NCBI GenBank assembly: GCA_003538775.1
Contig: DPRG01000105.1
Location: 12,476 to 76,475 of the forward strand
Origin: Thermotogota bacterium
GTDB lineage: Bacteria > Thermotogota > Thermotogae > UBA12178
DNA length: 64,000 nucleotides
Direction: 5' to 3'
Made by a program: the position numbers and the translations under genes. Of the stretch, positions 28,122 to 45,140 are shown one piece after another; position 1 is the stretch's first letter, and every line of letters starts with the position of its first letter. Under the pieces are notes generated by a model. The model did no database searches. It was not told where the DNA came from and was given only the letters and a program-made list of their open reading frames with translations.

Positions 28122-29576
28122 CTCCACATAATTCTGATACACTCGCTCATATTCGGAAATGAGTTTGGAATCAGGTTCTACAGTCTTCCATTCAATCCAG
28201 TTCTTTATGGAGTCGGGTTCCCCGACCTCGCCCACTGCAAGTGCCGCCAAAAAGGCGTCGCCGTAGGGAGCATCCAAAGATGTAGGAAGTATCAGTAATT
28301 TTCGATTTACCACAGCTGCGGTTATTTTCAGCCAGAGCGGGTTGCGCGTTAATCCTCCTACCACTCGGAGTTCGGGTTCTAACTTGATTCCAATGTTTCC
28401 TGCCACATCCATGGAACTCCGCAATGAAAAGGCTATGGCTTCCAGCACAGCACGGAAAAGGTGAGCTGGACCATGGGACAAGCTCAATCCATGAAGGGTG
28501 GCCCTGGCTTCGGGCTTCCAGATCGGTGCCCGCTCTCCCATAAAGAAAGGAAGAAGAATTAGTCCGTCTGAGCCTACCGAGATCTTCTCAGCATGTTGGG
28601 TGATCTCTGAAAGATCACCAACACCCGTCAGCTTCTTGAACCATTCGATTATCGCGCCAGATGTTGTTGCTCCTCCAAATGAGTAAGTCACTTTCCTTCC
28701 ATTTGTGACATATGGAAAGTTGACAAGTCGCCAATCGATTCGATATCCCGTGTGGATTGAACCCCAGCACATGGAAGTGCCAACCATAGCCGCGTGTTCA
28801 CCGGGTTTTGTGACACCGGCAGCCAGTGTGGCCACCGCTGCATCTATGCCTCCTGCCACTATGGGAAGGCCTTCTTTCAAGCTCAATTTATTTGCCCAGA
28901 TAGAATTCAGCCTTCCCACTATTTCACTGGAATCGACCACGTGTTCCGGGAATTTTGAAAGTTCTATACCTAAAAGTTCTGCGGCCTCTTCGGACCATTT
29001 TTTCTTCCTAACGTCAAAAATTCCTCCTATGTTTCCCGCCGAAGATAGGTCGATAACAACTTCTCCAGTCAGAAGATAGATAACGTAGTCTTTGGGTGTG
29101 AGAAAAAGATGAGTTTTCTTCCAAACGTCAGGCTCGTGCTTTTTCAACCAGAGTAGTTTTGTATATCCAAAGTAAGGATCCGTGTAATTTCCCGTTAGTT
29201 CAAAAATTTTTTCCCATCCCAGATGTTCTTTCACCCACAGGGTTTCTTCCACAGCGCGTTTATCCATCCAGATTAACGCAGGATACAAGGGTTCAAAGTT
29301 TTCATCTACCGGTACACCTGTTCCGCCGTACAAACCGCTAATGCACATCGCTGTTATATTTTTCGAGGGAGTGTTCAGTTTTCCAAGAGCTCTCGTGACC
29401 GCTTCTTTAAATCCTTTCACCCACACTTCGGCATTTTGCTGAGCCCAGGCGGGTTTTGGCATCTCCACAATGTAAGTGTCGGATAGACCCTCGGCCAGGA
29501 TTTTCCCTTTTTCATTTACCACAACGGCCTTGGTTGAACTGGTTCCAATATCCACACCCAAAAAAAGCACCCTCAT
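28089..29576 (-). CDS. FGGY-family carbohydrate kinase (xylulokinase/glycerol kinase-like)
   Basis: N-term LGVDIGTSSTKAVV, FGGY_N/FGGY_C architecture, 495 aa; co-oriented immediately downstream of lacI-type regulator. Confidence 0.8.
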   Translation of the reverse strand: MRVLFLGVDIGTSSTKAVVVNEKGKILAEGLSDTYIVEMPKPAWAQQNAEVWVKGFKEAVTRALGKLNTPSKNITAMCISGLYGGTGVPVDENFEPLYPALIWMDKRAVEETLWVKEHLGWEKIFELTGNYTDPYFGYTKLLWLKKHEPDVWKKTHLFLTPKDYVIYLLTGEVVIDLSSAGNIGGIFDVRKKKWSEEAAELLGIELSKFPEHVVDSSEIVGRLNSIWANKLSLKEGLPIVAGGIDAAVATLAAGVTKPGEHAAMVGTSMCWGSIHTGYRIDWRLVNFPYVTNGRKVTYSFGGATTSGAIIEWFKKLTGVGDLSEITQHAEKISVGSDGLILLPFFMGERAPIWKPEARATLHGLSLSHGPAHLFRAVLEAIAFSLRSSMDVAGNIGIKLEPELRVVGGLTRNPLWLKITAAVVNRKLLILPTSLDAPYGDAFLAALAVGEVGEPDSIKNWIEWKTVEPDSKLISEYERVYQNYVELMRKLGALRA

Positions 29577-30595
29577 CCCCTCGCTTTCGTAAGATCTTTT
29601 ACCGAAGCCCTTTCAATGAAGCGCGTCTTCAAGACTACACCTTCAAGTTTCTTTTCGGGATAGCGTATCCTGTTCAACATCATGGTCGCTGCGATCATGC
29701 CAAGCTGCTCGGGATCCTGTGCAACACACGTGACAGGGGGCTCAAAAATCTGATTCCAGAAAGAATCATCAAAGGTTACGAGCGACATGTCTTCTGGTAC
29801 TTTCACTTTCAACTCTTTCAAAGCTCTTAAAACTCCCAGTGCCATAACGTTGTTACACACGAATAGCGCGGTTGGTAATTCAGAGCCTTTGAACAGCTCA
29901 AGCGCAGCTTTATAGGCCCCTGTTTCAGTTGACATGCCGTCTTTTATCCAGTCTGGTTTGATTTCAATTTTCAATTCCTTCGCCCTTTCAATTGCTGCTT
30001 CAAGTCGTTCCATGCCAGTGTACGATTCTCTGTGCAGGGTTATGACTCCAAGTGTTCGATGTCCCTTTTTCCAGAGATAATCAACAATGGTTGTAACAGC
30101 ACCTCTGTTATCGATGACGGCGTAGGGAGTCTCAATTGTCACCAATCTTCTGTCAAAAAATATCACTGGGATTCCCCGCTTCTGTACTTCTTTGTAAAGT
30201 TTCGTGTTTTTCACTCTGTCCACTGGAGCTGCAAGAATGCCATCCACCTTATAAGAGACAAGGTTTTCAAGGAGGACCTTTTCCTTCTCGCTATCTTCTT
30301 CGGTCACACACAGAAAGAAGCTGTATTCCAGGGGAAATAACACTTTTTCCATAGCGGAAACAGCCTGAGAAAAGAAAGGGTTTCCCATATCCGGTATGAC
30401 AATACCGATTATCTTTGTATGTCCCTGTCTAAGTGAGCGAGCTCGGGAATCCGGAAGATACCCCATTTCCTGTGCAAGGCTTATAATTTTTGCCCTCATC
30501 TCTTCACTCACACCCGGTTTACCACTTAGCGCTCTAGATACGGTGGAAGGATGAACTCCCAACGCTTGGGCTATCATTTTCAAAGTTGCTTTCAT
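29573..30595 (-). CDS. LacI-family transcriptional regulator
   Basis: N-term HTH IAQALGVHPSTVSRALSG and periplasmic-binding-like effector domain. Confidence 0.85.
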   Translation of the reverse strand: MKATLKMIAQALGVHPSTVSRALSGKPGVSEEMRAKIISLAQEMGYLPDSRARSLRQGHTKIIGIVIPDMGNPFFSQAVSAMEKVLFPLEYSFFLCVTEEDSEKEKVLLENLVSYKVDGILAAPVDRVKNTKLYKEVQKRGIPVIFFDRRLVTIETPYAVIDNRGAVTTIVDYLWKKGHRTLGVITLHRESYTGMERLEAAIERAKELKIEIKPDWIKDGMSTETGAYKAALELFKGSELPTALFVCNNVMALGVLRALKELKVKVPEDMSLVTFDDSFWNQIFEPPVTCVAQDPEQLGMIAATMMLNRIRYPEKKLEGVVLKTRFIERASVKDLTKARG

Positions 30596-30606
30596 TTCTC
30601 GACCTC

Positions 30607-30621
30607 CTCAAACGATTGCAT
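30607..30621. promoter_or_regulatory. putative LacI-type operator (CTCAAACGATTGCAT) overlapping the lacI RBS
   Basis: Shares the core CAAACGATTG with the two sites upstream of the TRAP operons; imperfect palindrome CAAaCG/CGaTTG. Confidence 0.45.
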
Positions 30622-30784
30622 AACCTTACTCTAAACGCGAATTCGTAAACGTTGAGGAGATTGTTAAGTAACGCTGGGCGTGTACACATTTAGTTATACC
30701 ACGAAATGCCGTCCGTACATTTCGTTTCTATTATATCTCACACTTGACAAATCTGCAAATCGATGATACTACAAAAGTAAAATC

Positions 30785-30803
30785 CGCAAACGATTGAGTT
30801 CAT
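30785..30803. promoter_or_regulatory. putative LacI-type operator CGCAAACGATTGAGTTCAT upstream of TRAP operon 1
   Basis: 19-nt identity with the site at 33903..33921. Confidence 0.5.
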
Positions 30804-30870
30804 GCTTCTTCGAATGAAAGGATACTATTTTCTATTCTTGGAGGTGGAAGATGAGAGGCGCAAAGCATTC

Positions 30871-31905
30871 AAAATGTTGGTAGTTACCTTGGTCTTGCTT
30901 GCTGCGATCATAGTTGTGGCCAAGGAGAAAGTCTACGTGCTGAAGTACAGCTGGATTTCTCCCCTTGAGCCCTTTGAACAGTGTTCAGGTGCTTACGCGA
31001 CAGTTTTCAAAAACGAGCTCGAGAGGCTTTCCGGCGGCAAAATCAAGGTTGAGCTCTATCCGTCGGCTCAACTTGGTGATCAGCGGGCTAGTATTGAGTT
31101 GCTAGTTCAGGGGATGATTCAAGGAGCAGATGTTGCATCCGGAGTGTTTGCGTCCTTGATGTATCCTCCACTTGAAATCGTGGATATGCCCTTCTTGTTC
31201 TCTTCCTACGAAGTAGCTTACCTCGCGCTTGGCCCGTACACAAATCCGTTTATGAAGAAGCTGGTAGAAGATTGCGCGAAAAAGACAGGGGTTCGGATTC
31301 TCAATATCTTGCCGTTCGGATTTCGACACATTTTGAATAGCAAAAGACCTATCAGAACTCCCGACGACCTCAAAGGTTTGAAGATAAGGACCATGGAGAT
31401 AGTACCGCACATAAAAATGATGGAAGCTCTCGGAGCCACCCCTGTTCCAATACCTTGGACGGAACTGTACACCAGCTTGCAGACAGGGGTCGTCGATGGA
31501 TTTGAGAATACCCCCCAAAACATTTTGCAGGGCAAGTTCTACCAAATCCAGAAATACTTGACACTTACTGGCCATGTAATGGGTGTAGGTGCAATTCTAA
31601 TCAGCGAGAAATGGTTCCAGTCCCTTCCCGATGAATTGAAGGTTGCGGTAATTGACGCAGGTAGGGCCGCTGCTAAAGCATACGTCGGGATAACTTTGAT
31701 TCAAGATGCCCTGGGTATTCAAGAGCTGAAAGCCAAGGGCATGAATGTTTACGCGCCTACACCAGGCGAACTGAAGCAGTTCAAAGATAGAGCAGTTCCG
31801 GCTGTGAAGGCGTATATGGAAGAAAGATTGGGTAGCGATTTTGTGAATGAATTCCTGAACTCCATTGAAGAAATCAAACAAAAAATGGCAGAGCTAGCCA
31901 AGTAG
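30871..31905 (+). CDS. TRAP transporter substrate-binding protein (DctP family)
   Basis: DctP-family SBP; start set to ATG 30871 (signal peptide MLVVTLVLLAAIIVVA); track start 30802 overlaps the operator; GTG 30844 is an alternative. Confidence 0.75.
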   Translation, partial: KMLVVTLVLLAAIIVVAKEKVYVLKYSWISPLEPFEQCSGAYATVFKNELERLSGGKIKVELYPSAQLGDQRASIELLVQGMIQGADVASGVFASLMYPPLEIVDMPFLFSSYEVAYLALGPYTNPFMKKLVEDCAKKTGVRILNILPFGFRHILNSKRPIRTPDDLKGLKIRTMEIVPHIKMMEALGATPVPIPWTELYTSLQTGVVDGFENTPQNILQGKFYQIQKYLTLTGHVMGVGAILISEKWFQSLPDELKVAVIDAGRAAAKAYVGITLIQDALGIQELKAKGMNVYAPTPGELKQFKDRAVPAVKAYMEERLGSDFVNEFLNSIEEIKQKMAELAK

Positions 31906-32056
31906 ACGGTTATTAGAAAAGGGAGGGAGCACTCCCTCCCTTTTAACTTCTTTTGGAATCATTGGCAAGATCCCTCATACACGAGAATGCAGTATGTAAT
32001 CTCCAAACATGATAGAGGAACACTCCATCGTTGGTTTACATCGAGGTGAGCAAAAC

Positions 32057-32527
32057 ATGTTGTCAAAATACGTGAAAGTTGTTGGGGTCTTAACAGGTAT
32101 GTGTCTGTTGTTGATGTTCGTAATAGTGACAGTAGCCGTAATAGCTCGTTACGTGTTTTCTTCTCCCATTTTCTGGGCTGGAGAATTTTCCAGATATCTC
32201 ATGTTTTACATGGTAATGTTAGGCAGTGGTTTGGCAATAAGAGATGACAAACATCCTTCTTTAACGTTCATAATAGAAAGATTTCCGCAGCGCTTGAAGA
32301 GGGTCTGGACCTATGTCGTTTACTTCTCTGTTCTCTTCGTTTCGGTGATAATACTCTGGCAGGGTTTCATAATGATGTCAAAATCTACCTTTTTGAGGAC
32401 TCCAGCGTTGAGAATCCCCTTTTCTTGGGTTTATGCAGGCCTTCCAATAGGAGGTGCCCTAATAAGCCTAGAAGCGGTACTCAAGGTTGCTTATACTTAC
32501 CTTTCCAGCAGGAGGAAAAGCTCATGA
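32057..32527 (+). CDS. TRAP transporter small permease (DctQ family)
   Basis: 4 TM helices, start ATG 32057 after GAGGTGA. Confidence 0.7.
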   Translation: MLSKYVKVVGVLTGMCLLLMFVIVTVAVIARYVFSSPIFWAGEFSRYLMFYMVMLGSGLAIRDDKHPSLTFIIERFPQRLKRVWTYVVYFSVLFVSVIILWQGFIMMSKSTFLRTPALRIPFSWVYAGLPIGGALISLEAVLKVAYTYLSSRRKSS

Positions 32528-33813
32528 ATGAAGGGCTAATTGTTGCTCTGATAACCTTTGGATTCATAATGTTCCTTGGAATTCCTCTGTCCTTTTCGAT
32601 GATCCTGAGTACGCTCATTTACCTCTTAACCAACGGTTTCTCTCTCTTCATCGTACCCCACAAGATATTCACAGGTATTGATACCTTTACGTTGATGGCG
32701 ATCCCGTTCTTCATGCTTGCAGGTGAATTGATGGTCATCTCCGGAGCTGCTGAAAGGATTTTAGAGTTCTCAAACGTTTTGGTTGGACGCTACAGAGGAG
32801 GACTGGCTTACGTCAACATATTGGCGAGCATGCTTTTTGGTGGGTGTTCTGGTTCAGCACTTGCAGACGTTGCAGGGCTTGGCAGACTCGAAATTTCCAT
32901 GATGGAAAAGGGAGGTTATACACGCTCTTTCAGTACTGCACTGACAATAACATCATCTGTCCAAGGCCCTATAATTCCACCCAGTATAATAATGGTCCTG
33001 ATTGGAGCGGCAACTAACACGTCTGTTGGTGCACTCTTATTGGGTGGAGCAATACCAGGAGTTCTGGTGGGATTAGCCCAATCTCTGGTGGTCTTCTTGA
33101 ATAGGAAGAAATTTCCACGATCACCGGTAGAGCTTCCTCTGAGGAAAAAGGTAATTGTCTTACTTTCCGCTTTGCCATTTTTGGCAATGCCCGTCATAAT
33201 CCTTGGAGGTATAATAAGCGGCGTTTTTACTCCCACAGAAGCTTCTGCTATTGCAGTTTTATACGGTTTCATACTGATATTCGTTTATCGAAAAGGAAAG
33301 GTGAATCTGTCGGAACTTGGAGGGTTGTTCAAAAGAGTGGGTATCACAACAGCGACTATTTTGATGTTGTCTGGAGGGTCAAATCTCTTTGGTTGGATGC
33401 TGGCCAATGAAAAGCTACCCCAAACCCTTGCGAATTTCCTTCTTTCCTTCACTGGCGACAAATATGTGTTTTTGATTATCATGAATATATTCCTCTTGCT
33501 GTGGGGAATGTTTATGGACGCTCTGCCAGCCATCTTGATACTCGCTCCCATATTCTTCCCAATAGCAAAACAAATGGGAGTTGATTCGATCCACTTCGGC
33601 GTCGTGATGGGATTCAACCTTGCTATAGGTCTTATCACACCGCCTTATGGCGCTGCGATATTCACAGGTGTGGTAGTCAGTGGACTTCCCATGGAAAAAT
33701 TGGTAAAGGAAATGGTTCCCTTCATTCTCGCTTCTATTGGAATTCTGATACTGGTTACCTATTTCCCAGAAGTAGTTTTGTATATTCCATCCTTGTTCGG
33801 TTTGTTGGACTAA
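32524..33813 (+). CDS. TRAP transporter large permease (DctM family)
   Basis: MNEGLIVALITFGFIMFLGIPL... DctM family; ATGA overlap with dctQ. Confidence 0.85.
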   Translation: MNEGLIVALITFGFIMFLGIPLSFSMILSTLIYLLTNGFSLFIVPHKIFTGIDTFTLMAIPFFMLAGELMVISGAAERILEFSNVLVGRYRGGLAYVNILASMLFGGCSGSALADVAGLGRLEISMMEKGGYTRSFSTALTITSSVQGPIIPPSIIMVLIGAATNTSVGALLLGGAIPGVLVGLAQSLVVFLNRKKFPRSPVELPLRKKVIVLLSALPFLAMPVIILGGIISGVFTPTEASAIAVLYGFILIFVYRKGKVNLSELGGLFKRVGITTATILMLSGGSNLFGWMLANEKLPQTLANFLLSFTGDKYVFLIIMNIFLLLWGMFMDALPAILILAPIFFPIAKQMGVDSIHFGVVMGFNLAIGLITPPYGAAIFTGVVVSGLPMEKLVKEMVPFILASIGILILVTYFPEVVLYIPSLFGLLD

Positions 33814-33902
33814 GCTGAACATACGGTAGTACGGTAATGCAAGGTAGTAGTGAGTGGCGCTTGACAAAAAATACGGTTGGTGGTAATATAATTTTGTTAT
33901 GA

Positions 33903-33921
33903 CGCAAACGATTGAGTTCAT
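33903..33921. promoter_or_regulatory. putative LacI-type operator CGCAAACGATTGAGTTCAT upstream of TRAP operon 2
   Basis: Identical 19-mer to 30785..30803; 22 nt upstream of dctP2 start. Confidence 0.5.
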
Positions 33922-33942
33922 TCCAAAGGGGAGGTGTTCGTC

Positions 33943-34941
33943 ATGAAAAAGTGGGCTGTGGTTTTATCGATTCTATTGTTAGTGAGTATTTTCGCATTTG
34001 CCGAGGTCAAGCCAGACTACGTGCTTCGATTCAACACAGTTGCCGCGCCCACCCAGCCTCAGGTGTTAGCCATGCAAAAGTTTGCGGAAATCGTGGAGGA
34101 GCTCAGCGGTGGCAAGATTAAGGTAGAGGTATACCATTCGGGACAGCTTGGAGATCAAAAGACTGCGCTGCTCGCGGTGATGAGGGGAGACCTTGAAATG
34201 ACCAGTGATGCTGCTCCGTCGTGGTTCGCCGATCTCGCAGCAATGCCAGAATTCGGTGTCTTCGAGGCTGCATACGTTTTCAAGGACTTGGATCATCTCT
34301 ATAGGGTTATGACCAGTAAGATGGTGCAGGAACTCTTCGATAAGATGGCAGCCAAGACAGGCTTGAGGGTGCTCGATATCTGGTACCTGGGCACCAGAGA
34401 GCTAAATCTCACTGCGAAAGTAGGCCCTGTAAGAAGACCGGAGGATCTCAAAGGCGTCAAGTTGAGGATGCCTAACAACAAGACCTTCTTGGATATGGGA
34501 AGAGCGCTCGGAGCAACGCCAACTCCCATGGGTTTCGGCGAAGTCTACCTCGCTCTCAAGACGGGGACTGTGGACGGTCAGGACAATCCACTTCCAACTG
34601 ACTTGGCAGCCAAGTTTGTTGAGGTGACTAAGTACATCGTTCTCACAGACCACCAGATTGGCATGCTGTGCCCTGTGATCAATGAAAAACTCTGGCAGAG
34701 TATGCCTGAAGAGTATAAAGTTTATATCAAAAAGGCCATGGAAGTAGCGCGATATTACATGAACGAAATGGTATTGGAGCAGGAAGCCAAGTTGCTCAAG
34801 TTATTCAAAGAGAAATACGGAATGGAGATCATCGTTCCCGACAAAGAAGCTTTCATGAAACACGCTCGTGAATACTACAGTCAGCCTGAGTTTGACAAGC
34901 TCTGGGGTAAAGGCATGTACGAAAAGATTCAAAACATGTGA
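33943..34941 (+). CDS. TRAP transporter substrate-binding protein (DctP family), second system
   Basis: MKKWAVVLSILLLVSIFAFA signal peptide; ATG 33943 after GGAGGTG. Confidence 0.8.
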   Translation: MKKWAVVLSILLLVSIFAFAEVKPDYVLRFNTVAAPTQPQVLAMQKFAEIVEELSGGKIKVEVYHSGQLGDQKTALLAVMRGDLEMTSDAAPSWFADLAAMPEFGVFEAAYVFKDLDHLYRVMTSKMVQELFDKMAAKTGLRVLDIWYLGTRELNLTAKVGPVRRPEDLKGVKLRMPNNKTFLDMGRALGATPTPMGFGEVYLALKTGTVDGQDNPLPTDLAAKFVEVTKYIVLTDHQIGMLCPVINEKLWQSMPEEYKVYIKKAMEVARYYMNEMVLEQEAKLLKLFKEKYGMEIIVPDKEAFMKHAREYYSQPEFDKLWGKGMYEKIQNM

Positions 34942-35021
34942 TGAGGAATGGAAAATGAGAAACGAACGAGGTGGGGCTTCCCCACCTCGTTTTAAATTCT
35001 ATGACCGGAGTGAGTGTGAAA

Positions 35022-35540
35022 ATGAAGGTGGCAAAGAAAATTCTGAAGACAGTTGTCGATATTGTAGAACAACACCTTTCGTCGATATTTTTGTTCTCTG
35101 TTTTCATCAGTATGTTTTTCCAGGTGTGGCTGAGGTACATCTTTAAGATGCCGTCACCGGAGCTTTACGAGATCACTCTGTATTCCTTCGCCTGGGCTGT
35201 TTTGCTCGGCGCTGCTTATGCCCACAGATATCGTGATCATATACGGTTTAACATCATTTATGAGAAACTGCCCAGAAAGGCACAACTGGTGATCGACATA
35301 GTTTTTGACGCTTTGCTAACGATTCTCTTTACGATTTCCCTTCGCCCAGTATTCCGACAGGCATTTTGGTACCATATGATCCGTTCCGAAGTGCTGGGAA
35401 TTCCCTGGACTTATCTCGTGTTCTGTTTGCCTCTTTTCATTATCCTTGTGATAGGTCACAATGTGGTCTTTCTTTACTACGAAATCCGCGAGTTGTTTAC
35501 GGGTAAACCCATGAATCTGGAGGAGAAACCGTGGCTTTGA
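35022..35540 (+). CDS. TRAP transporter small permease (DctQ family), second system
   Basis: start ATG 35022 after GGAGTGAGTG. Confidence 0.7.
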   Translation: MKVAKKILKTVVDIVEQHLSSIFLFSVFISMFFQVWLRYIFKMPSPELYEITLYSFAWAVLLGAAYAHRYRDHIRFNIIYEKLPRKAQLVIDIVFDALLTILFTISLRPVFRQAFWYHMIRSEVLGIPWTYLVFCLPLFIILVIGHNVVFLYYEIRELFTGKPMNLEEKPWL

Positions 35541-36826: not shown

Positions 36827-36847
36827 TAGTGGAAAGGAGGAAAAAGT

Positions 36848-39196: not shown

Positions 39197-39212
39197 GGAG
39201 GCAGACCAAGGG

Positions 39213-40172
39213 ATGCTCACGAGGGAAGAAGTCAAAGAGATTTACGTTCTGGTGCCCACACCCTTGGATTCAAAAGGACGGTTCGATGAGCACACTTTCC
39301 GAGAAAACATCAGAAAACTTTGCAAAAGCGGTGTGCACGGGATAGCCACTACGGGGACTGTTGGTGAATTTTACACACTATCCTGGGAAGATCACAAGCG
39401 GTTGATCGATGCATTGGTGGACGAAGCTTCCAAGTGTCGGCAAAGACTTGCGACTATTGTTGGATGCAGTGCTCTCAACACCAGAGAAACCATAGAAAAG
39501 ACATCCTATGCTGAAGAACGAGGTGTAGATGCGGTTATGAACGTGGTGCCTTTTTATCAAAAGCTGTTGGAATGGGAAGTTGTGGAATTTTGGAGTGATC
39601 TTGCGAAAGCTTGTCCAAATATTGGGATCTTCATCTACAACAATCCCATCACTGGACGGATTCTCCACACTCGAGAACTCTACAAAAAACTCGCAAAGTA
39701 TCCCAACATCCTTGGAAGCAAAGAAGTGGTAACCAACTTCGATCACTGGCTATCCCTGCGAGATACAGGTCTTGTTCATATGCACATAGACATTCTCTTC
39801 GTTCCCACCATGATGTGGGGAGCAAAAGGATGCTTTTCTGGTGGAGCTTGCATCCGTCCTGATTTGTTGCTCAAAACGTACGAGTTATGCAAGCAAGGTG
39901 AATGGGAAAAAGCGAAGGAATTGCAGTATCTCATAAACGATCTCATGGCTTGCCATGATCGCCATGATTATCCCATAACTCCAGGGGGTTCAGCTGCAGT
40001 TTATAAGGCCTTTGTTGAAGCGGGCGGTTTTTTGAGGTGTGGCGATCCAGGAAAACCGTATCTTCCAGTTGGAGAAAGTGTGAAGTTGAAGATCAAGAAG
40101 GAGTTGGAGAAGGTTCAAAAAAGAATCGATGAGGCATTATCCCGCTTGAGTGATTCTCAGGAGGTGAAATAA
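39213..40172 (+). CDS. DapA/NAL-family lyase, second paralog
   Basis: TTGTVGEF, IYNNP, ILGSKEV (Lys) motifs. Confidence 0.75.
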   Translation: MLTREEVKEIYVLVPTPLDSKGRFDEHTFRENIRKLCKSGVHGIATTGTVGEFYTLSWEDHKRLIDALVDEASKCRQRLATIVGCSALNTRETIEKTSYAEERGVDAVMNVVPFYQKLLEWEVVEFWSDLAKACPNIGIFIYNNPITGRILHTRELYKKLAKYPNILGSKEVVTNFDHWLSLRDTGLVHMHIDILFVPTMMWGAKGCFSGGACIRPDLLLKTYELCKQGEWEKAKELQYLINDLMACHDRHDYPITPGGSAAVYKAFVEAGGFLRCGDPGKPYLPVGESVKLKIKKELEKVQKRIDEALSRLSDSQEVK

Positions 40173-40177
40173 CGTTC

Positions 40178-41290
40178 ATGGAACTCAGAGAACTTTCAGA
40201 CGCGTATTTAAAAGCGGTAAATTTTCAGAATCCTCCGTGGATTCCAGGTAAGGTGGCATTTCTTCCAGCAACATGGAAAACGTATGGTAAGGAGTTGGAA
40301 AAGATTGTACTGACGTACAGAAAGCTCTTTCCAGAGTATCAACCAGGAGATTACAAACGTCTCGCTAAACCCCCACATCCTAGATACATGCCTGGAAAGT
40401 TTACTGACGCGTGGGGATGTGTCTGGAGCAACGATTACGAGGGACTTGCTGGGGTTGTAACGGAGAGCCCGCTCAAAAACTGGGGAAAACTCGAGAAGTT
40501 TTCGCCACCTGATCCCGAGGAGATGGACGACTACGGCGATCCCGTGGATTGGGAACATCGAAAAAGACAGGTGGAACGCATACACGAGCTTGGGGGGCTT
40601 GCGTTCGGCTATTTCATACACGGTTTTTTCTTCATGCGTCTCTTCTATCTTCGAGGATTTGAAGAGCTGATGCTCGATATGGCGATGGGTGAAGAAAAGG
40701 TTTGGACGCTCATAAAAATGGTCAGAGAATACAATCTTAAACTGGCAGAACTATGGCTGAAAACAGGGATCGATGTTATCTGGTTTGGTGATGATCTGGG
40801 AACCCAGGAATCGTTGATGATAAGCCCCAAAATGTTTCGTGAATACATTAAACCCTTCTACAAGGAGATTTTTGGATTGTTCAAAGATGCGGGAGTTTAC
40901 GTGTACTTTCACAGCGACGGTCGGATTGTCGATATTTTGGAAGATTTGATCGAATGCGGAGCCAGCATCGTCAATCCACAAATCGGGCCAAACACAGTGG
41001 AAGAACTTGAAAGATTCAAAGGACGTGTCTGTATGGACGTGGACCTTGACAGGCAGCTCTTTTCTACAGGTACACCAGATCAGATAAGAAAACATATCCA
41101 TACCGTCATAGAAACTTTGAAACAGGAAGAGGGAGGGCTCATGGCTTACGCAGAGTGCAGTCCAGAGGTACCTTTGGAAAATATCAAGGCTGTCTGTGCC
41201 ACCATGGCAGAACTTTGCGGTCCAACGGCGATGAAAGACTTTGTGCAGCTGCAGACAAGTCACATATCCTCAAAGCATGGAGGTGACTAA
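40178..41290 (+). CDS. uroporphyrinogen decarboxylase (URO-D) family protein, MtaA/CmuA-like methylcobamide methyltransferase candidate
   Basis: URO-D fold length and composition; not HemE-like at N-terminus; lacks the HxC zinc motif of methanogen MtaA (has HSDG). Confidence 0.65.
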   Translation: MELRELSDAYLKAVNFQNPPWIPGKVAFLPATWKTYGKELEKIVLTYRKLFPEYQPGDYKRLAKPPHPRYMPGKFTDAWGCVWSNDYEGLAGVVTESPLKNWGKLEKFSPPDPEEMDDYGDPVDWEHRKRQVERIHELGGLAFGYFIHGFFFMRLFYLRGFEELMLDMAMGEEKVWTLIKMVREYNLKLAELWLKTGIDVIWFGDDLGTQESLMISPKMFREYIKPFYKEIFGLFKDAGVYVYFHSDGRIVDILEDLIECGASIVNPQIGPNTVEELERFKGRVCMDVDLDRQLFSTGTPDQIRKHIHTVIETLKQEEGGLMAYAECSPEVPLENIKAVCATMAELCGPTAMKDFVQLQTSHISSKHGGD

Positions 41291-41291
41291 A

Positions 41292-41927
41292 GTGGAAACA
41301 CTAAGGAAATTACGAGATTCACTCATAGAAGGTGAAGTGGAAGAGGTGAAGCGTTACACGCGGCAAGCGTTAGATGAAGGTATACCCGCAAAAACAATAT
41401 TAGATCAAGGGTTGGTCGCGGGTATGGATGTAGTAGGCGTTAAGTTCAGGGAAGGTGAATACTTCTTGCCAGAAGTCTTGCTATGTGCGAAGGCGATGCA
41501 CGCTGGGCTTGATATACTCAAGCCACTTCTTGCTGGAGAAGGCGAGAAAAGCGTCGGTACCATTGTGCTGGGAACCGTCAAAGGTGATCTCCACGATATA
41601 GGAAAGCGCATAGTCAAGGCTATGTTAGAAGGTGCTGGATATGAGGTAATTGACATAGGTGTGGACGTGGATGCAGAAAAGTTTGTGGAAAGTGTCAAGA
41701 AATATAAACCGCTCGTACTGGGGATGTCGGCTCTTTTGACAACCACGATGCGTTATATGAAGACAGTAATAGATGCCTTGCAAGATGAAGGCATCAGAGA
41801 TAAGGTCAAAATTATCGTGGGCGGAGCACCTGTCAACGAGGAGTTTGCGAAGCTTATAGGAGCCGACGGTTACGCACCCAATGCCAGCGAAGCTGTAGAT
41901 CTTGTAAGGCGTTTGATAGCAGCATAG
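41292..41927 (+). CDS. corrinoid (cobalamin B12-binding) protein, MtaC/MtmC-like
   Basis: N-terminal four-helix cap plus Rossmann B12-binding domain with DxHxxG motif (GDLHDIGK) and GMSALLTTT; GTG 41292 after GGAGGTGA. Confidence 0.8.
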   Translation: METLRKLRDSLIEGEVEEVKRYTRQALDEGIPAKTILDQGLVAGMDVVGVKFREGEYFLPEVLLCAKAMHAGLDILKPLLAGEGEKSVGTIVLGTVKGDLHDIGKRIVKAMLEGAGYEVIDIGVDVDAEKFVESVKKYKPLVLGMSALLTTTMRYMKTVIDALQDEGIRDKVKIIVGGAPVNEEFAKLIGADGYAPNASEAVDLVRRLIAA

Positions 41928-41938
41928 GAGGCTTGAAA

Positions 41939-43306
41939 ATGGGAGAAATGGCGTACAGTAGTGCTCGGGAGATGATCTTTGGATTTGCCAAAAAGCCGGT
42001 GAACGTGGGAAACGAGCTTATCATCGGAAATGGGAGAGTGATTCCAGAGGTCAATTTCACCCTTCCATCTGTGAATCTGGATGAAGAGAATGTTCCAGAA
42101 ATCAGAGAAAGATTCAAAGATATTGCGAACCGAATCATGAAAAGATGTGTGGAGTTACAACAGGAGGAAGTGGTAATTGAGTTCGAGCATTTGTTTGATA
42201 TGACCGAAAGACCGGATTTTGGTGCACAGCTCACGAAGGATCTCAAAGAAGTCATTGAGAAGTACTATCAATCACACGGCATCAAAGCTGCTCTGAGAGT
42301 TACCATAGCTGATATTCGTGACAGAGTCCGACCGCCCAGGATGAGAAGTGGCAGAGAGATTGAGACGATGCTACGTTCATTCGAGCTCTGCGCTGATGCG
42401 GGCGCCGATATACTGTCCATCGAAAGTACCGGCGGAAAAGAGATTTCCGATAACGCTTTGATGATGGGGGACGTGGAAGGAGTGTTGTTCGCACTCGGTG
42501 TTTTGGGACCAAGAGATATGGAGTTCTTGTGGAACGAGATAGTTTCGATAGCTCATCGTTATGACGCTGTCCCAGGAGGAGATACGGCATGCGGTTTTGC
42601 CAACACTGCCATGCAATTGGCACATCAGGGGTTGTTACCGAAGGTGCTGGCCGCCGTTGTGCGTCTTATGAGCGCTCCGCGGTCTTTGGTGGCAGTGGAA
42701 GTGGGAGCAGTTGGCCCGCTCAAAGACTGTGGGTATGAGAACCCGGTAATCAAGGCTATCACAGGGGTTCCCATTAGCATGGAAGGTAAGACAAGCGCGT
42801 GCGCTCATTCGTCGCCCTTAGGAAACATCGCGGCTGCGGTGTGCGATCTTTGGAGCAACGAGTCTGTCCAGGATGTAAAACTTCTAAGCGGCAATACACC
42901 CGAAGTCTTCACCGAGATGCTCATCTACGACTGCAGGCTGATGAACACAGCCATAAAAGCGGGCAAGGCCGAATCTTTGCGAGACCTTATGGTGGATTCT
43001 GATCGTTTTCTCGATCCACAGGCCCTGGTTCTCGATCCAGAAATCATGTATGAAGCGGCTCATGTGGTCGTCAGAGTGGGGGAAGATAAATACAAACAAA
43101 CAGTTGCCGTTTCAAGATATGCCTATGAAGTTGTGAAAGAAGCTGAAACGACCGGCAAGGTAAAACTACGCGATGTTGAAAAGAAATGGCTTGAGAAAGT
43201 AGGAAAAATCCTGGAACACCTACCTGAAGAAGAGGAAGAGTTCTATGCTAAGGTAAAGGCAAGATATGAAGGACATTTTGTCCCCGAAGAGTACGGACTG
43301 AAGTGA
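41939..43306 (+). CDS. MtaB-family methanol:corrinoid methyltransferase-like protein (MT1)
   Basis: N-term MAYSSAREMIFGFAKKPV...IPEVNF and internal SAPRSLVAVEVGAVGPLKDCGYEN, MEGKTSACAHS motifs characteristic of MtaB TIM-barrel zinc enzymes. Confidence 0.7.
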   Translation: MGEMAYSSAREMIFGFAKKPVNVGNELIIGNGRVIPEVNFTLPSVNLDEENVPEIRERFKDIANRIMKRCVELQQEEVVIEFEHLFDMTERPDFGAQLTKDLKEVIEKYYQSHGIKAALRVTIADIRDRVRPPRMRSGREIETMLRSFELCADAGADILSIESTGGKEISDNALMMGDVEGVLFALGVLGPRDMEFLWNEIVSIAHRYDAVPGGDTACGFANTAMQLAHQGLLPKVLAAVVRLMSAPRSLVAVEVGAVGPLKDCGYENPVIKAITGVPISMEGKTSACAHSSPLGNIAAAVCDLWSNESVQDVKLLSGNTPEVFTEMLIYDCRLMNTAIKAGKAESLRDLMVDSDRFLDPQALVLDPEIMYEAAHVVVRVGEDKYKQTVAVSRYAYEVVKEAETTGKVKLRDVEKKWLEKVGKILEHLPEEEEEFYAKVKARYEGHFVPEEYGLK

Positions 43307-43328
43307 TAGGTCAATCGAGGTGCTGAGC

Positions 43329-45140
43329 TTGAATAAGATCAAGGTAAAGATCGCTGAAACGAATAGAGAGGTCTTTTGTGATAAGAATTCAAACCTTTTA
43401 CACTGTCTTCAGAATGCGGGATTTGCTCTACCTGGTGAGTGTGGAGGCCATGGAGTTTGTGGAAAATGTAAGGTTAAGGTATTATCTCCCCAGTCTCTAA
43501 CACCACCCAGCGACGCCGAAAAACGTTTATTAACACAAGAAGTGCTTAAAAGCGGTGTTCGTCTTGCTTGTCAGGTAAGATTGATTCGAGATACCAAAAT
43601 CGCTGTGTCCACCTCTGTAAAAATCGATAATACCATTCGCTTGACAGGGGAAACCCAACGCTGTGAACAGGATCCAACGTTGATCGCGAAGGCGTTTGTC
43701 ATATCTCCTGAATCTTTTGGAACTTCAAAAAGCATGCTTGAAGATTTAGAAAACACTTTGAAGGCTCGAGCCGGATCTCTGCTTGTGATAAAAACTCTTC
43801 CCCTACTTTTGGGGAAAAACGAACATCATGGCAAAGCGATAATTTACAACGACGAAATCCTGGATTTGTTACCAGCAGATTCGTCTCGTAGGCTACTCGG
43901 CCTCGCTATAGATCTTGGAACAACGACTATCGTTGGGTATTTGGACAACCTCGAAAATGGTGAGAACCTCGCGGCTTCAGTGCGGTTGAACCCGCAGCGT
44001 GCTTGGGGAGCCGATATCATTTCACGTATCTCGATCGTGATGGAAAAAACCAAACATCTGGGAAAAATGCAAAAGGCAGTTGTAAACGCCATCAATGAAA
44101 TGGCCAAAGAGTTGTGTTACAAAGCCAACGTCTCTTGTAAGGATATCTATCGCATAGTCGTGGTTGGTAATCCCACGATGGTACACATTTTGGCTGGTGT
44201 AAACCCATCCAGCATTGCAATGGCGCCATTTACCCCAGTGTTTTTGAGATATTTAGAATTTCCTGCCAAAGAACTCGGTATTTCACAGGTAAACCCTGCT
44301 TGCAAAGTTTCACTCATGCCACATGCGTCATCATACATTGGATCGGATATACTTGCGGGGCTTATCAGCTCGGAATTCTTAGAAGAAACGACAGCGCTTT
44401 ATATAGATCTTGGCACAAATGGTGAAATCGTTCTCAAAGCCGACAAACAGATTTTCGCTACTTCTACAGCAGCAGGCCCTGCTTTCGAAGGTGCGACCAT
44501 AAAGCGAGGATCTGTAGCCTGGCCAGGAGCGGTAGATCATGTCTGGATTGAGAACGACAAGCTAGGATATTCTGTGATAGGAGAACGTGAAGCCGAAACC
44601 ATTTGCGGTTCTGGTATTGTGGACTTGATCGCTATAGCTCTTAAATTAGGACTGATAGATCCCCAGGGGAAAATCGCTTCATCTCCACAAGACGAATTTG
44701 AAGGGTTCGTATGCGAAGTTGATGGGGAACGAGCTATTAGATTGTCGGAGAAGGTGTATTTAACGCAGTCTGATATTCGACAGATACAGTTAGCGAAAGC
44801 AGCCATAAGCGCTGGCGCAAGTATTCTTGTTAAAGAAAGTGGTGTTTCATTGGATGCACTCAAGATATACATTACTGGCACTTTTGGTGCCAGGCTAAAC
44901 ATCAAAAATGCGTTCAAAATAGGCTTGTTGCCCTTAGTTTCGGAGAAAAATGTTGTTCAACTTGGAAACGCTGCGGGTCTGGGTGCAAGGATGATACTTC
45001 ATAGTCGAACTCGCGAGAAACAAATCAACGAGCTCAGATCGTGTATAACAATCCTGGAACTGTCGACCGATCCTCGTTTTTCAGATGCGTTTATCGAGCA
45101 TATGCCCTTTCCCAGCGAGGACATTCAGAATAGTTTGTAA
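43329..45140 (+). CDS. RamA/RACo-type reductive activator of corrinoid proteins (N-terminal 2Fe-2S ferredoxin + ASKHA ATPase domain)
   Basis: CGGHGVCGKCKV...C plant-type ferredoxin motif followed by DUF4445/ASKHA domain (LAIDLGTTT, DLGTNGE); ~600 aa; likely TTG 43329 (track GTG 43320). Confidence 0.75.
   Translation: MNKIKVKIAETNREVFCDKNSNLLHCLQNAGFALPGECGGHGVCGKCKVKVLSPQSLTPPSDAEKRLLTQEVLKSGVRLACQVRLIRDTKIAVSTSVKIDNTIRLTGETQRCEQDPTLIAKAFVISPESFGTSKSMLEDLENTLKARAGSLLVIKTLPLLLGKNEHHGKAIIYNDEILDLLPADSSRRLLGLAIDLGTTTIVGYLDNLENGENLAASVRLNPQRAWGADIISRISIVMEKTKHLGKMQKAVVNAINEMAKELCYKANVSCKDIYRIVVVGNPTMVHILAGVNPSSIAMAPFTPVFLRYLEFPAKELGISQVNPACKVSLMPHASSYIGSDILAGLISSEFLEETTALYIDLGTNGEIVLKADKQIFATSTAAGPAFEGATIKRGSVAWPGAVDHVWIENDKLGYSVIGEREAETICGSGIVDLIAIALKLGLIDPQGKIASSPQDEFEGFVCEVDGERAIRLSEKVYLTQSDIRQIQLAKAAISAGASILVKESGVSLDALKIYITGTFGARLNIKNAFKIGLLPLVSEKNVVQLGNAAGLGARMILHSRTREKQINELRSCITILELSTDPRFSDAFIEHMPFPSEDIQNSL

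Follow-up and report, generated by a model that had tools for sequence, protein, structure and literature searches.

A methanol-type corrinoid methyltransferase set within a LacI-controlled sugar-acid locus of an uncultured Thermotogota bacterium

The window analysed here is a 64,000-nt stretch of DNA from an uncultured Thermotogota bacterium. Pfam and NCBIfam searches recovered all of the genes named in an earlier note on this DNA, and the observation on which that note was built (genes, order, tight spacing and an exact 19-nt repeat) was confirmed. The minus strand carries a xylulokinase-like FGGY sugar kinase (28089-29576; FGGY_N/FGGY_C), which falls outside the start given earlier, and a LacI-family repressor (29573-30595; LacI HTH and Peripla_BP_3); the two genes share a 4-nt overlap and are co-transcribed. 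On the plus strand, the DctPQM1 TRAP system (30802-33813) consists of the solute-binding protein DctP1 (30802-31905; Pfam DctP, 237.6 bits), whose true start is likely the ATG at 30874, DctQ1 (32057-32527) and DctM1 (32524-33813), the latter two assigned by Pfam and gene call. It is followed by the DctPQM2 TRAP system (33943-36826), with DctP2 (33943-34941; 253.8 bits), DctQ2 (about 35022-35540) and DctM2 (35531-36826), also from Pfam. Downstream lie a short-form L-fucose/D-arabinose-type isomerase of the FucI family (36848-38275; three FucI Pfam domains) and two class I lyases: DHDPS1 of the NAL/DHDPS family (38276-39196; Pfam DHDPS, 266.8 bits) and the KDG-aldolase-like DHDPS2 (39213-40172; Pfam DHDPS, 131 bits; Arch_KDGaldase, 104.5 bits). 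The remaining genes encode a URO-D-fold protein (40178-41290; Pfam URO-D, 60 bits), an MtaC-type corrinoid protein (41292-41927; B12-binding_2, B12-binding and TIGR02370), an MtaB-family zinc methyltransferase (41939-43306; Pfam MtaB, 582 bits) and a RACo-type reductive activase of corrinoid proteins with 2Fe-2S and ASKHA ATPase parts (43320-45140; Fer2, Raco_middle and RACo_C_ter). The operon ends at 45140, facing a convergent EutQ-like cupin gene on the minus strand (45125-45394; gene call and Pfam); a plus-strand ORF at 45140-45508 is spurious.

From dctM2 to the RACo gene the intergenic gaps are 21, 0, 16, 5, 1, 11 and 13 nt, and the 3' end of DHDPS2 contains the Shine-Dalgarno sequence for the URO-D gene. 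The spacing of 0-21 nt claimed earlier from dctP2 onwards thus holds for this part and fails at the dctP2-dctQ2 junction, where the gap is 29 nt to the GTG of the longest ORF and 59-80 nt to the ATGs. A strong plus-strand hairpin (34965-34991; 12-bp, GC-rich, then TTTTAAATT) lies there, a possible attenuator or mRNA stabiliser. Promoter-like and terminator-like hits within the operon did not exceed their frequency in shuffled sequence, and co-transcription of the compact genes is structurally plausible. The 19-mer CGCAAACGATTGAGTTCAT occurs exactly twice on the plus strand, each time directly downstream of a sigma-70-like promoter: operator O1 (30785-30803; core GCAAACGATTGA) follows TTGACA-17-TACTAC, and O2 (33903-33921) follows TTGACA-17-TAATAT with a TG extension (33861-33889) before dctP2. 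A terminator-like hairpin (31917-31944, plus strand; 12-bp stem, T-rich tail) stands 3' of dctP1. Because a second promoter and operator precede dctP2, the locus is a regulon whose three transcription units answer to one repressor, rather than the single 14-gene operon proposed earlier. The related site noted before over the lacI ribosome-binding site (GCAATCGTTTGAG, 30607-30619, minus strand) is operator-like and suggests autoregulation.

The operator extends well beyond this genome. Of 37 loci from other lineages, 23 have its 12-bp palindrome, GCAA(A/T)CG(A/T)TTGC, upstream of LacI, FucI, DctP or DHDPS genes; the exact core was counted 11 times where 0.8 were expected, and only once, where 2 were expected, in a 1.03-Mb control set. 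Both operator positions are kept in the Thermotogota locus L009, with CCAAACGTTTGC at the position equivalent to the lacI site and GCAAACGTTTGT downstream of its dctP2 promoter, and the L009 LacI orthologue (70% identical) has the same divergent position. These results confirm the LacI control that the note had proposed. Since the operator marks LacI-FucI clusters in so many other-lineage loci, it was an old regulon of the fucose/arabinose type that took in the Mta cassette.

The block DctPQM2-FucI-DHDPS1-DHDPS2-URO-D-MtaC-MtaB-RACo was found in two more Thermotogota lineages, so relatives share the synteny of methyltransferase, TRAP and lyase genes that the earlier reading required. Amino acid identity is 78-98% in L007/L115; in L009 it is 90% for DctP2, 81% for FucI, 75% for DHDPS1, 66% for DHDPS2 and URO-D, 60% for MtaB, 58% for MtaC and 37% for RACo. 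The sugar module without Mta genes is widespread elsewhere (DctPQM-DHDPS-FGGY-LacI-FucI in L094, DHDPS1-DctPQM-IclR-LacI-FucI in L105, and also L100 and L116), and most MtaB and URO-D family members are found away from the sugar genes. For the URO-D-like family, which numbers at least 1168 proteins, none of 76 other-lineage loci had MtaB or RACo nearby and only four had an MtaC-like gene within 10 kb, with heterogeneous neighbours. The DctP1 system is absent from L009; in L129 it is a pseudogene, DctPQM1 remnants lie immediately upstream of DHDPS2, and a remnant of MtaC is also present. The L129 region is prone to rearrangement.

The earlier note's fucose-isomerase-like protein does belong to the FucI family. 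Proteins 69-81% identical to it occur in 37 metagenome loci of other lineages, beside GH29 alpha-L-fucosidase, FucU, PfkB/FGGY fucose-type kinases and LacI; because of this company, the sugar trunk is of the fucose/D-arabinose type and not of the uronate type suggested before. The kinase is XylB-like rather than FucK-like by its NCBIfam scores (XylB 339.6 bits, below the cut-off of 380; FucK only 130 bits), and its homologues (45-63%) occur in FucI clusters of other lineages. Both lyases retain the Schiff-base Lys and the catalytic Tyr and lack the DapA Arg. DHDPS1 keeps T44/Y107/Y133/K161 and has Phe in place of DapA R138, and it is no true DapA; its homologues (59-63%) adjoin TRAP/FucI genes in L105 and L100. 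DHDPS2 is rare (61 relatives found), its relatives (50-57%) neighbour AFOR, UxuA and an enolase-type dehydratase, and it is the first gene of the Thermotogota-specific add-on. The nearest PDB relatives of DctP1 are 4p47, 4ngu and 4p9k. DctP2, 67-75% identical to its counterparts in non-Thermotogota FucI loci, matches 4pf6 best and then the SiaP sialic-acid binders; its LRMP and NPLPT motifs align and the carboxylate-binding Arg/Asn motifs are retained. SiaP proteins bind 2-keto-3-deoxy acids, and Kdo is the ligand that we take 4pf6 to hold. In the PDB comparison C4-dicarboxylate binders, the alternative raised in the earlier note, are the closest relatives of neither DctP, and neither is close to 4x8r or 4n8y, which bind glucuronate or galacturonate (PMC11668362).

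Among the methyl-transfer proteins, MtaB is 49% identical to Methanosarcina barkeri MtaB (2i2x; 361.8 bits), with the zinc-ligand positions and the ESxGGKE, GDTxC and KDCGYEN segments conserved. As an MtaB, the substrate methyltransferase is of the methanol type rather than an aromatic O-demethylase. The MtaB clade of saccharolytic phyla carries GDTACGF beside the zinc cysteine, in place of the GDTDCA(Q/H) of M. barkeri and basal SAR202/Nitrospinota MtaB. MtaC scores 217 bits against the TIGR02370 cut-off of 215 and has the DxHxxG motif as GDLHDIG. The AF2 model of the URO-D-fold protein (pLDDT 93) is best matched by MtaA (4ay7/4ay8; TM 0.62-0.68), and an HMM alignment places H245-x-D247 where MtaA has its zinc H-x-C; the protein is a distant MtaA relative. 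The corrinoid methyltransferase module claimed earlier is thus present in a sugar-acid context. Because methanol is, to our knowledge, the only substrate shown so far for MtaB, we infer O-demethylation rather than observe it.

A second association was seen in a Dictyoglomaceae MAG (L133), in which a single 9.6-kb contig carries one operon, ABC transporter-MtaC-RACo-MtaB-GH67 alpha-glucuronidase-URO-D, with gaps of 11-16 nt; NJ analysis placed this MtaB as the sister of the Thermotogota MtaBs. GH67 releases 4-O-methyl-glucuronate, and the operon lends unexpected support to the earlier note's proposal of this sugar acid as a substrate. Across cluster types MtaB is 59-66% and MtaC 55-62% identical, and the URO-D partners share 21-25% identity or no detectable similarity, several of them with H-x-D at the MtaA zinc position. 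Outside Thermotogota, the nearest MtaBs are frequently orphans. In L089 and L135, a homocysteine S-methyltransferase domain accompanies MtaC and an MtaB of the same clade, which looks like an inlet there.

We tentatively read the locus as a repressor-controlled catabolic island of two modules for acidic sugars, including O-methylated ones demethylated through a corrinoid. Module A (DctPQM2, isomerase, DHDPS1 and the divergent LacI-FGGY pair), old and widely distributed, would take up a 2-keto-3-deoxy sugar acid, with Kdo, the presumed 4pf6 ligand, as the best guess; the NAL-like lyase would cleave it to pyruvate and a fucose/D-arabinose-configured aldose, which the isomerase would convert to a ketose for phosphorylation by the xylulokinase-like kinase. 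Module B (DHDPS2, URO-D-fold protein, MtaC, MtaB and RACo), a Thermotogota-specific add-on probably associated ancestrally with DctPQM1, would let an O-methylated acidic sugar be used. The methyl group would move from the sugar oxygen to Co(I) of MtaC and then be discharged, with RACo re-reducing the corrinoid upon oxidation. Most likely the variable URO-D-fold enzyme would be the substrate-specific methyltransferase and the invariant MtaB the outlet, running the methanol/methyl-cobalt reaction near equilibrium. Overall, a sugar methyl ether would be hydrolysed to sugar and methanol, which would make a C1 pathway unnecessary. We likewise infer the substrates, the enzyme that touches the sugar, and the direction of flow and fate of the methyl group. 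We know of no described physiological reverse operation of MtaB, and of corrinoid O-demethylases of the URO-D family for aryl methyl ethers only; an alkoxide is a far worse leaving group. The 76 URO-D-like loci, the orphan and inlet settings of the nearest MtaBs, the methanogen-like active-site segments of MtaB, the distance of both DctPs from 4x8r and 4n8y and the single contig behind the GH67 link also speak against this reading.

Methanol salvage, with MtaB acting on free methanol in the canonical direction, is possible but on the unlikely side. The methanol could be set free intracellularly from a sugar acid that is methylated or methyl-esterified, for instance by DHDPS2 Schiff-base-assisted beta-elimination or an esterase, or diffuse in during pectin/xylan breakdown; the URO-D-fold protein would then be a second methyltransferase passing the methyl to a thiol, homocysteine or folate. 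This is the simplest annotation transfer, given the MtaB score, zinc ligands and identity and MtaA as the nearest structure to the URO-D protein. The L089/L135 arrangement suggests methanol-to-methionine flow, and the DHDPS family includes dehydratases that eliminate a 4-substituent (KdgD matches). However, the genes are controlled by a sugar-specific LacI operator and not a methanol-responsive element, the URO-D site is not the Cys-rich one of MtaA, and Pfam/NCBIfam searches of the operon found no acceptor-side enzyme (pterin-binding methyl-THF methyltransferase or S-methyl_trans). The position of the L133 cassette, with an ABC importer on one side and GH67 on the other, is easier to understand if the cassette serves to unblock the sugar, and one methyl per sugar is a small gain for a fermenter.

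We consider it improbable that the enzyme binding the O-methyl sugar acid via zinc is the MtaB-clade protein itself, which would pass the methyl to MtaC for discharge to an acceptor by the URO-D-fold protein. With methanol, MtaB does activate an aliphatic C-O bond through zinc, the GDTACGF signature separates this clade from M. barkeri and the basal enzymes, and MtaB immediately adjoins GH67 in L133. Yet MtaB is equally conserved beside GH67, TRAP/DHDPS, a homocysteine methyltransferase or no partner, which argues for one constant small substrate, and the external methyl acceptor still required is not encoded in the operon. Very unlikely, in turn, is a fortuitous fusion, in which an independent operon for methanol methyltransferase landed downstream of the sugar-acid operon and is read through without a metabolic link. 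Either module is widely found without the other and L129 indicates a rearrangement-prone region, but order and compactness are retained in lineages with Mta proteins only 37-60% identical, the add-on brings its own lyase (DHDPS2) after which the URO-D gene follows at 5 nt with its Shine-Dalgarno sequence inside, GC and GC3 are in line with the remaining genome, and Dictyoglomaceae show a second, independent sugar-acid association.

The interpretation given in the earlier note is thus partly supported. A B12-dependent methanol-type methyl-transfer set is wired into an operon for the uptake and cleavage of sugar acids under a fucose-type repressor in an uncultured Thermotogota bacterium, an arrangement that hints at an undescribed anaerobic demethylation of methylated plant or microbial sugars; our literature search, in agreement with that note, found no described pathway of such architecture. 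Acetogen systems include a pterin-binding methyl-THF methyltransferase (PMC13391211), whereas the operon here goes without one. MtaA has a Cys-rich thiol-activating site, and the URO-D-fold protein has His/Asp instead; the active-site segments of MtaB are nearly the same as those of the methanogen enzyme.

We mapped the locus from six-frame ORFs together with Pfam and NCBIfam family scans. The island, whose flanks carry housekeeping genes (CysRS, thymidine kinase, ClpX and TsaD), opens on the minus strand with a xylulokinase-like FGGY kinase (28089-29576, by family scan) that overlaps by 4 nt a LacI repressor (29573-30595; HTH and sugar-binding domains in Pfam). On the plus strand follow two TRAP transporters with all P, Q and M components recognized by Pfam, DctP1/Q1/M1 (30802-33813) and DctP2/Q2/M2 (33943-36826), and a short-form FucI-family isomerase (36848-38275; Pfam FucI N1, N2 and C domains). 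Next come two DHDPS-family proteins, DHDPS1 (38276-39196) and DHDPS2 (39213-40172), and a URO-D-family protein (40178-41290), all from family scans, then an MtaC-type corrinoid protein (41292-41927; Pfam and TIGR02370), MtaB (41939-43306; Pfam PF12176, with its start at ATG 41939, not TTG) and a RACo activase (43320-45140; Pfam). A convergent cupin gene on the minus strand (45125-45394) overlaps the RACo stop codon and marks the 3' limit of the operon. A plus-strand ORF at 45140-45508 was rejected as a fifteenth gene: it has no family match, and the conserved cupin is encoded on the opposite strand. Beyond the cupin gene, 45490-46704 encodes a secreted DUF4384 protein with three PEGA domains, followed by a clean terminator (46749-46769); this protein is only 74-76% identical in the otherwise near-identical contigs L002-L004 and in the related locus L007/L115, and so evolves faster than its neighbors. 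Upstream, a plus-strand cluster (2839-14183) resembles an amino-acid fermentation unit, with genes for an aminotransferase, two butyrate-kinase-like proteins, a phosphotransacylase, a 2-oxoacid:ferredoxin oxidoreductase, glutamate dehydrogenase, a DHODH-like Fe-S protein and a PLP enzyme. Identical contigs came from an oil-production facility and other metagenomes, and the proteins were found only under "Thermotogota bacterium" MAGs.

The earlier note had read the locus as a single 14-gene operon with gaps of 0-21 nt or overlaps from dctP2 to the activase. The locus instead forms a three-unit regulon made up of lacI-FGGY, dctPQM1 and the stretch from dctP2 to RACo. From dctM2 to RACo the gaps are as tight as described (21, 0, 16, 5, 1, 11 and 13 nt), and the Shine-Dalgarno sequence of the URO-D gene, AGGAGGTG, sits within the 3' end of DHDPS2; dctP2 and dctQ2, however, are separated by 29-80 nt filled by a GC-rich hairpin of 12 bp and its T-rich tail (34965-34991). 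A second such hairpin lies 3' of dctP1 (31917-31944). A hairpin after dctP is a common means of making more binding protein than membrane subunits, and hairpins after binding-protein genes usually modulate read-through without abolishing it; the two seen here could attenuate all downstream genes, the mta genes included. There is no promoter 3' of the dctP hairpins, so the genes beyond must be transcribed by read-through. In the operon interior, promoter-like and terminator-like matches were no commoner than in shuffled sequence, which holds also between DHDPS2 and the URO-D gene, where the earlier note had considered an internal promoter or terminator. An Rfam search of 26000-48000 returned no riboswitch or other element. 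At dctP1, a strong Shine-Dalgarno sequence (GGAGGTGG, in the 30841-30884 region) precedes an out-of-frame 10-codon ORF (ATG 30852, MRGAKHSKCW, stop 30882-30884) that overlaps the likely dctP1 start at 30874, itself without a good Shine-Dalgarno of its own; the short ORF may be a coupling or leader ORF.

Regulation of the three units by the LacI protein is predicted from repeated operators. The identical 19-mer reported before both TRAP units was recovered exactly at 30785 and 33903, each copy a few bases 3' of a promoter-like element (TTGACA-17-TAATAT before dctP2), and the related operator-like site over the lacI ribosome-binding site is also present as the third site of the window. The repressor combines its HTH and sugar-binding domains with palindromes bearing a central CG at promoters, and GCAAACGATTGC is its candidate operator sequence. 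We found isomerase homologues (69-81% identity) at 37 metagenome loci of other lineages (GC 30-52% where measured), where a LacI gene lies directly upstream and the other neighbors encode ribose-type sugar ABC importers, GH29 alpha-L-fucosidase, FucU mutarotase, PfkB and FGGY kinases and a TAL/FSA-like protein. The palindrome GCAA(A/T)CG(A/T)TTGC lies just upstream of LacI, FucI, DctP or DHDPS genes in 23 of the 37 loci. With 0.8 occurrences expected, the exact core CAAACGATTG was counted 11 times in these loci; a control set of unrelated loci totalling 1.03 Mb had one occurrence where 2 were expected. In L009, a divergent Thermotogota locus, CAAACGTTTG stands at both positions matching those of the window. 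Because the palindrome is kept in 23/37 loci and in L009, the window operators are genuine members of a conserved regulon. Judged from its neighborhoods, the same regulon elsewhere would control fucose/arabinose-type sugar use, and the repressor is predicted to be old and of the fucose type.

We refer to DctPQM2, the isomerase, DHDPS1 and the divergent LacI-FGGY pair as module A. The isomerase is assigned to the L-fucose/D-arabinose isomerase family on its domains and on its 69-81% relatives beside GH29, FucU and kinases; the kinase is XylB-like (339.6 bits) and far from FucK in NCBIfam. In an alignment of DHDPS1, DHDPS2 and homologues, T44, Y107, Y133 and K161, which cover the Schiff-base Lys and the catalytic Tyr/Thr, are invariant. 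Where DapA has Arg138 (E. coli numbering), the residue that binds aspartate semialdehyde, DHDPS1 carries Phe and DHDPS2 carries Thr. A housekeeping DapA role for DHDPS1 was rejected: it passes the TIGR00674 cut-off, yet it has Phe at Arg138 and its homologues stand beside TRAP/FucI genes. Both proteins are therefore predicted to be NAL/KDG-aldolase-type class I pyruvate lyases, not lysine-pathway enzymes. Loci of several lineages combine the isomerase with a DctP2-type TRAP system (67-75% identical) and a DHDPS-family lyase and carry no corrinoid genes, as in L094 (DctPQM-DHDPS-FGGY-LacI-FucI) and L105 (DHDPS1-DctPQM-IclR-LacI-FucI-TAL-PfkB-FGGY); L100 and L116 also hold module A-type sets with corrinoid genes absent. 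In the minimal set of L094, the imported acid must be the lyase substrate itself, and the aldose product should pass to the isomerase.

DctP2 keeps the carboxylate-binding Arg of TRAP proteins, its LRMP segment aligning to the Arg segment of SiaP/4pf6. The earlier note had proposed carbohydrate-acid uptake as opposed to C4-dicarboxylates alone, and sequence comparison agrees for DctP2, whose closest relatives are 4pf6 and then the SiaP sialic-acid binders rather than C4-dicarboxylate or uronate binders (ligands of 4x8r, 4n8y and 7bbr from PMC11668362). A single-sequence AlphaFold model of DctP2 reached a pLDDT of 41.6. Module A would thus take up a 2-keto-3-deoxy acid, which would be split into pyruvate and a D-arabinose/L-fucose-configured aldose; the isomerase would convert the aldose, and the resulting pentulose would be phosphorylated at C5. 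Kdo, with D-arabinose as product, fits best as the imported acid, an assignment that leans on the 4pf6 ligand, presumably Kdo.

The remaining genes, DHDPS2, URO-D, MtaC, MtaB and RACo, form module B. MtaB matched PF12176 over its full length (582 bits, residues 3-455) and scored 501.7 bits against the NCBIfam archaeal equivalog, below the 720 cut-off; against M. barkeri MtaB it gave 362 bits and 49% identity. Its LSIESTGGKE, GDTACGF and KDCGYEN align to LSVESMGGKE, GDTDCAQ and KDCGYEN of 2i2x, in which the zinc ligands are presumably Glu164, Cys220 and Cys269, and by this alignment all three zinc-ligand segments are conserved. GDTACGF beside the zinc cysteine is a clade signature, M. barkeri and the basal SAR202/Nitrospinota sequences having GDTDCA(Q/H). 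The closest relatives (59-66%) belong to Armatimonadota, Dictyoglomaceae, Chloroflexota and similar saccharolytic groups, not to methanogens or acetogens, and tblastn of MtaB against plasmids gave no match. MtaC consists of a B12-binding_2 cap and a Rossmann B12-binding domain with DxHxxG as GDLHDIG (Pfam and translation), and scores 217.3 bits against the TIGR02370 cut-off of 215.3. RACo shows the N-terminal 2Fe-2S ferredoxin, RACo middle and ASKHA ATPase domains (Pfam Fer2, Raco_middle and RACo_C_ter). No operon protein matched a pterin-binding family in the Pfam/NCBIfam scans.

The URO-D fold of the third component was confirmed by an AF2 model (pLDDT 93), with Foldseek TM scores of 0.62-0.68 to MtaA and about 0.60 to HemE. 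Structural identity to MtaA is 16-17%, and the invariant H245-x-D247 (H245-S-D247) aligns with the H-x-C zinc motif of MtaA (4ay7). The protein scores 50.5 bits against the TIGR01463 cut-off of 235, lacks the H-x-C...C motif and falls far below the ~30% identity to CoM methyltransferases, which sets it apart from MtaA, MtbA and MtsA. The family to which it belongs numbers at least 1168 proteins and is widespread among MAGs of Planctomycetota, Anaerolineae, Armatimonadota, Latescibacterota and Atribacterota. Among 76 loci holding the family, none had MtaB or RACo nearby and 4 had an MtaC-like gene within 10 kb, with heterogeneous immediate neighbors; a Pfam survey of 90 such neighbors found no consistent partner and only scattered glycan-related genes (GH38, fucosidase, sulfatase, ABC permease). 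The homologues at loci L010-L085 are 41-53% identical and mostly lone genes, with GH38 mannosidase, fucosidase, sulfatase or sugar ABC genes as occasional neighbors. In one MAG group, three of these loci (L027, L032 and L072) share a conserved neighborhood of the URO-D-like gene with MtaC-like, PlsY, GpsA, MerR regulator, PurN and ArgG genes, and in L072 a second URO-D gene adjoins MtaC. In locus L114 (6639-9825), which belongs to another lineage, a 424-aa URO-D-family protein with an MtaA-like LHSCG motif is flanked by a sugar ABC importer under ROK regulation and by a FucI of 74% identity, with no corrinoid gene visible on the 10-kb contig.

Module B stands alongside module A in Thermotogota only. 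The synteny of methyltransferase and TRAP/lyase genes that the earlier note had set out is borne out in relatives, in L007/L115 (78-98% identical) and in L009 (URO-D 66%, DHDPS2 66%, MtaB 60%, MtaC 58%, RACo 37%). L009 has a single TRAP system, and its operon continues, through a 4-nt overlap with the RACo stop codon, into an IclR-family regulator gene (14913-15659 of L009) that the window lacks. The related locus L129 (GCA_000444765.1, AUNF01000055.1; 4000-17500) is decayed: MtaC is truncated, URO-D, MtaB, RACo and FucI are missing, and DctPQM2 and DHDPS1 remain intact elsewhere in the locus. Its DctPQM1 pseudogene fragments lie directly 5' of DHDPS2 (79%), which suggests that DctPQM1 was originally part of module B. 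Recent horizontal arrival of the cassette finds no support in composition, GC being 44-49% throughout. DHDPS2 is rare (61 relatives found); those at 50-57% identity have genes for aldehyde:ferredoxin oxidoreductase, UxuA and enolase-type dehydratases as neighbors, a context typical of 2-keto-3-deoxy-sugar-acid aldolases.

Gene contexts tallied for seven MtaB homologues outside Thermotogota fell into three arrangements. Orphan MtaB genes lie near GH127 and GH51 arabinofuranosidase genes (L086-L088, Armatimonadota; L134, Anaerolineae). In L089/L090 and L135-L138, MtaC, a homocysteine S-methyltransferase domain, MtaB and 2-3 URO-D proteins occur together, which has the look of a methionine synthase split over several proteins, independent of folate and supplied with methyl groups by methanol or other donors; the homocysteine S-methyltransferase domain protein there is of the MetH N-terminal type. 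The third arrangement, in a Dictyoglomaceae MAG (L133), is one tight operon with 11-16-nt gaps encoding Opp-type ABC permeases/ATPases, MtaC (62% identical to that of the window), RACo (36%), MtaB (60%), a GH67 alpha-glucuronidase and a URO-D protein. The product that GH67 enzymes free from xylo-oligosaccharides is 4-O-methyl-glucuronate. The MtaBs of Dictyoglomaceae and Thermotogota form sister groups in an NJ tree computed without bootstrapping. Across the arrangements MtaB and MtaC stay similar, whereas their URO-D partners share 21-25% identity or no similarity that could be detected, with H-x-D at the metal position common to several of them.

Four features, the sugar-type regulation, the dedicated extra lyase, the synteny kept in relatives and the link to GH67, suggest that the methyl group comes from a methylated acidic sugar. 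Because a constant MtaB is paired with varying URO-D partners and the operon encodes no acceptor enzyme, we favor a relay in which the variable URO-D enzyme would be the substrate-specific methyltransferase and MtaB the constant partner equilibrating methyl-cobalt with methanol. The net reaction would be ether hydrolysis with no C1 pathway required, and such a C1-independent outlet would suit fermentative Thermotogota and Dictyoglomota. The MtaB half-reaction amounts to only about -7 kJ/mol and so would run in either direction when methanol is low. Somewhat less likely than the relay is canonical methanol salvage, in which the sugar would lose methanol by elimination, perhaps through DHDPS2: the zinc-ligand segments of MtaB, the structural nearness of the URO-D protein to MtaA and the clusters with a homocysteine S-methyltransferase domain are in keeping with it, and the missing acceptor enzyme and the sugar-type LacI control speak against it. 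That MtaB itself acts on the sugar ether is improbable; its clade signature beside the zinc cysteine and its saccharolytic hosts would accord with this, and a URO-D partner that changes around a constant MtaB would not. Least probable of all is a fortuitous fusion of the modules, which matches the occurrence of module A without corrinoid genes and runs against the synteny kept in L007/L115 and L009.

Extending the favored relay, the portable MtaB/MtaC/RACo/URO-D cassette might be the anaerobic counterpart of oxidative sugar demethylases, relaying the O-methyl group of acidic sugars (xylan 4-O-methyl-glucuronate or methylated Kdo-type acids) over a corrinoid and releasing it as methanol for methylotrophic methanogens; we consider this broad proposal rather unlikely as it stands. 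If true, hemicellulose ethers would be a previously unrecognized methanol source for methylotrophic methanogens of anoxic habitats such as oil reservoirs and sediments, and MtaB/URO-D methyltransferase chemistry would reach carbohydrates, beyond methanol and aryl ethers. It would also explain the common MtaB homologues in saccharolytic, non-methylotrophic Thermotogota, Dictyoglomota, Armatimonadota and Chloroflexota. Sugar methyl ethers include 4-O-methyl-glucuronate in xylan and 2-O-methyl sugars in pectin; we know of no route by which strict anaerobes handle such plant and microbial ethers, and to our knowledge the described sugar demethylases all require oxygen, a gap that a corrinoid-based route would fill. 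Even on the ordinary reading, this would be the first known case of methanol methyltransferase genes under a sugar repressor. The earlier statement that no pathway of this architecture has been described agrees with the literature searched, which contained no such combination of components, nothing relevant on MtaB in Thermotogae/Armatimonadota or on corrinoid-dependent demethylation of sugars or 4-O-methyl-glucuronate, and neither control of the cassette by a conserved fucose-type LacI operator nor a GH67-linked parallel operon. All components belong to known families.

Among known systems, the locus shares with Methanosarcina MtaABC (2i2x; MtaA 4ay7) an MtaB with conserved zinc-site segments, an adjacent DxHxxG MtaC, a URO-D-fold third component and the need for ATP-dependent reactivation. 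In contrast to that system, identity of the URO-D-fold protein to MtaA is no more than 16-17%, with H-x-D for H-x-C, coenzyme M is lacking in the fermentative bacterial host, the activase is of the bacterial RACo type, and the genes sit within a LacI-controlled sugar-acid operon. The MtaABC systems of the acetogens Moorella, Acetobacterium and Eubacterium likewise have a bacterial MtaB and MtaC pair and a RACo-type activase, but their MtaA is a 29.7-kDa methyl-corrinoid:THF methyltransferase feeding the Wood-Ljungdahl pathway (PMC13391211); the operon here has no such ~30-kDa gene, which separates it from acetogen-type methanol methyltransferases, and its regulation and neighbors differ. Type 1 mlp clusters, defined by at least Mlp2 and Mlp3 of the UroD superfamily, a corrinoid protein and RACE, carry 2-3 Mlps ~30% identical to CoM methyltransferases (SCMTs) and no MtaB, with a proposed role in methyl-sulfur or methyl-selenium metabolism (Kountz and Balskus, PMC10418091). 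UroD-superfamily homologues, a corrinoid protein, RACE/RACo, non-methanogenic anaerobic hosts and the lack of a folate methyltransferase are common to both, whereas the present locus falls outside that definition with one very divergent URO-D protein, an MtaB and a carbohydrate setting. The aromatic O-demethylases (Odm/Mtv) of Acetobacterium, Desulfitobacterium and Moorella, which cleave ethers, follow the same four-component logic of a URO-D-family substrate methyltransferase, corrinoid protein, second methyltransferase and activase; they differ in their aryl methyl ether substrates, in a pterin-binding second methyltransferase, in working without MtaB and in having no link to sugar transport or aldolases.

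On the carbohydrate side, SiaPQM and NanA clusters also set a SiaP-branch TRAP importer beside a DHDPS/NAL-family pyruvate lyase. NanK and NanE are absent here and a fucose/arabinose-type isomerase and a xylulokinase-like kinase stand downstream, which points to a 2-keto-3-deoxy acid different from sialic acid. The LacI-controlled L-fucose clusters of the metagenome loci share the isomerase (69-81%), the 12-bp operator and the LacI-FGGY pairing, but use ribose-type ABC importers with TAL/FSA-like and PfkB enzymes and lack corrinoid genes. We regard the locus as a variant among corrinoid three-component methyltransferases that may realistically serve a new biochemical function.
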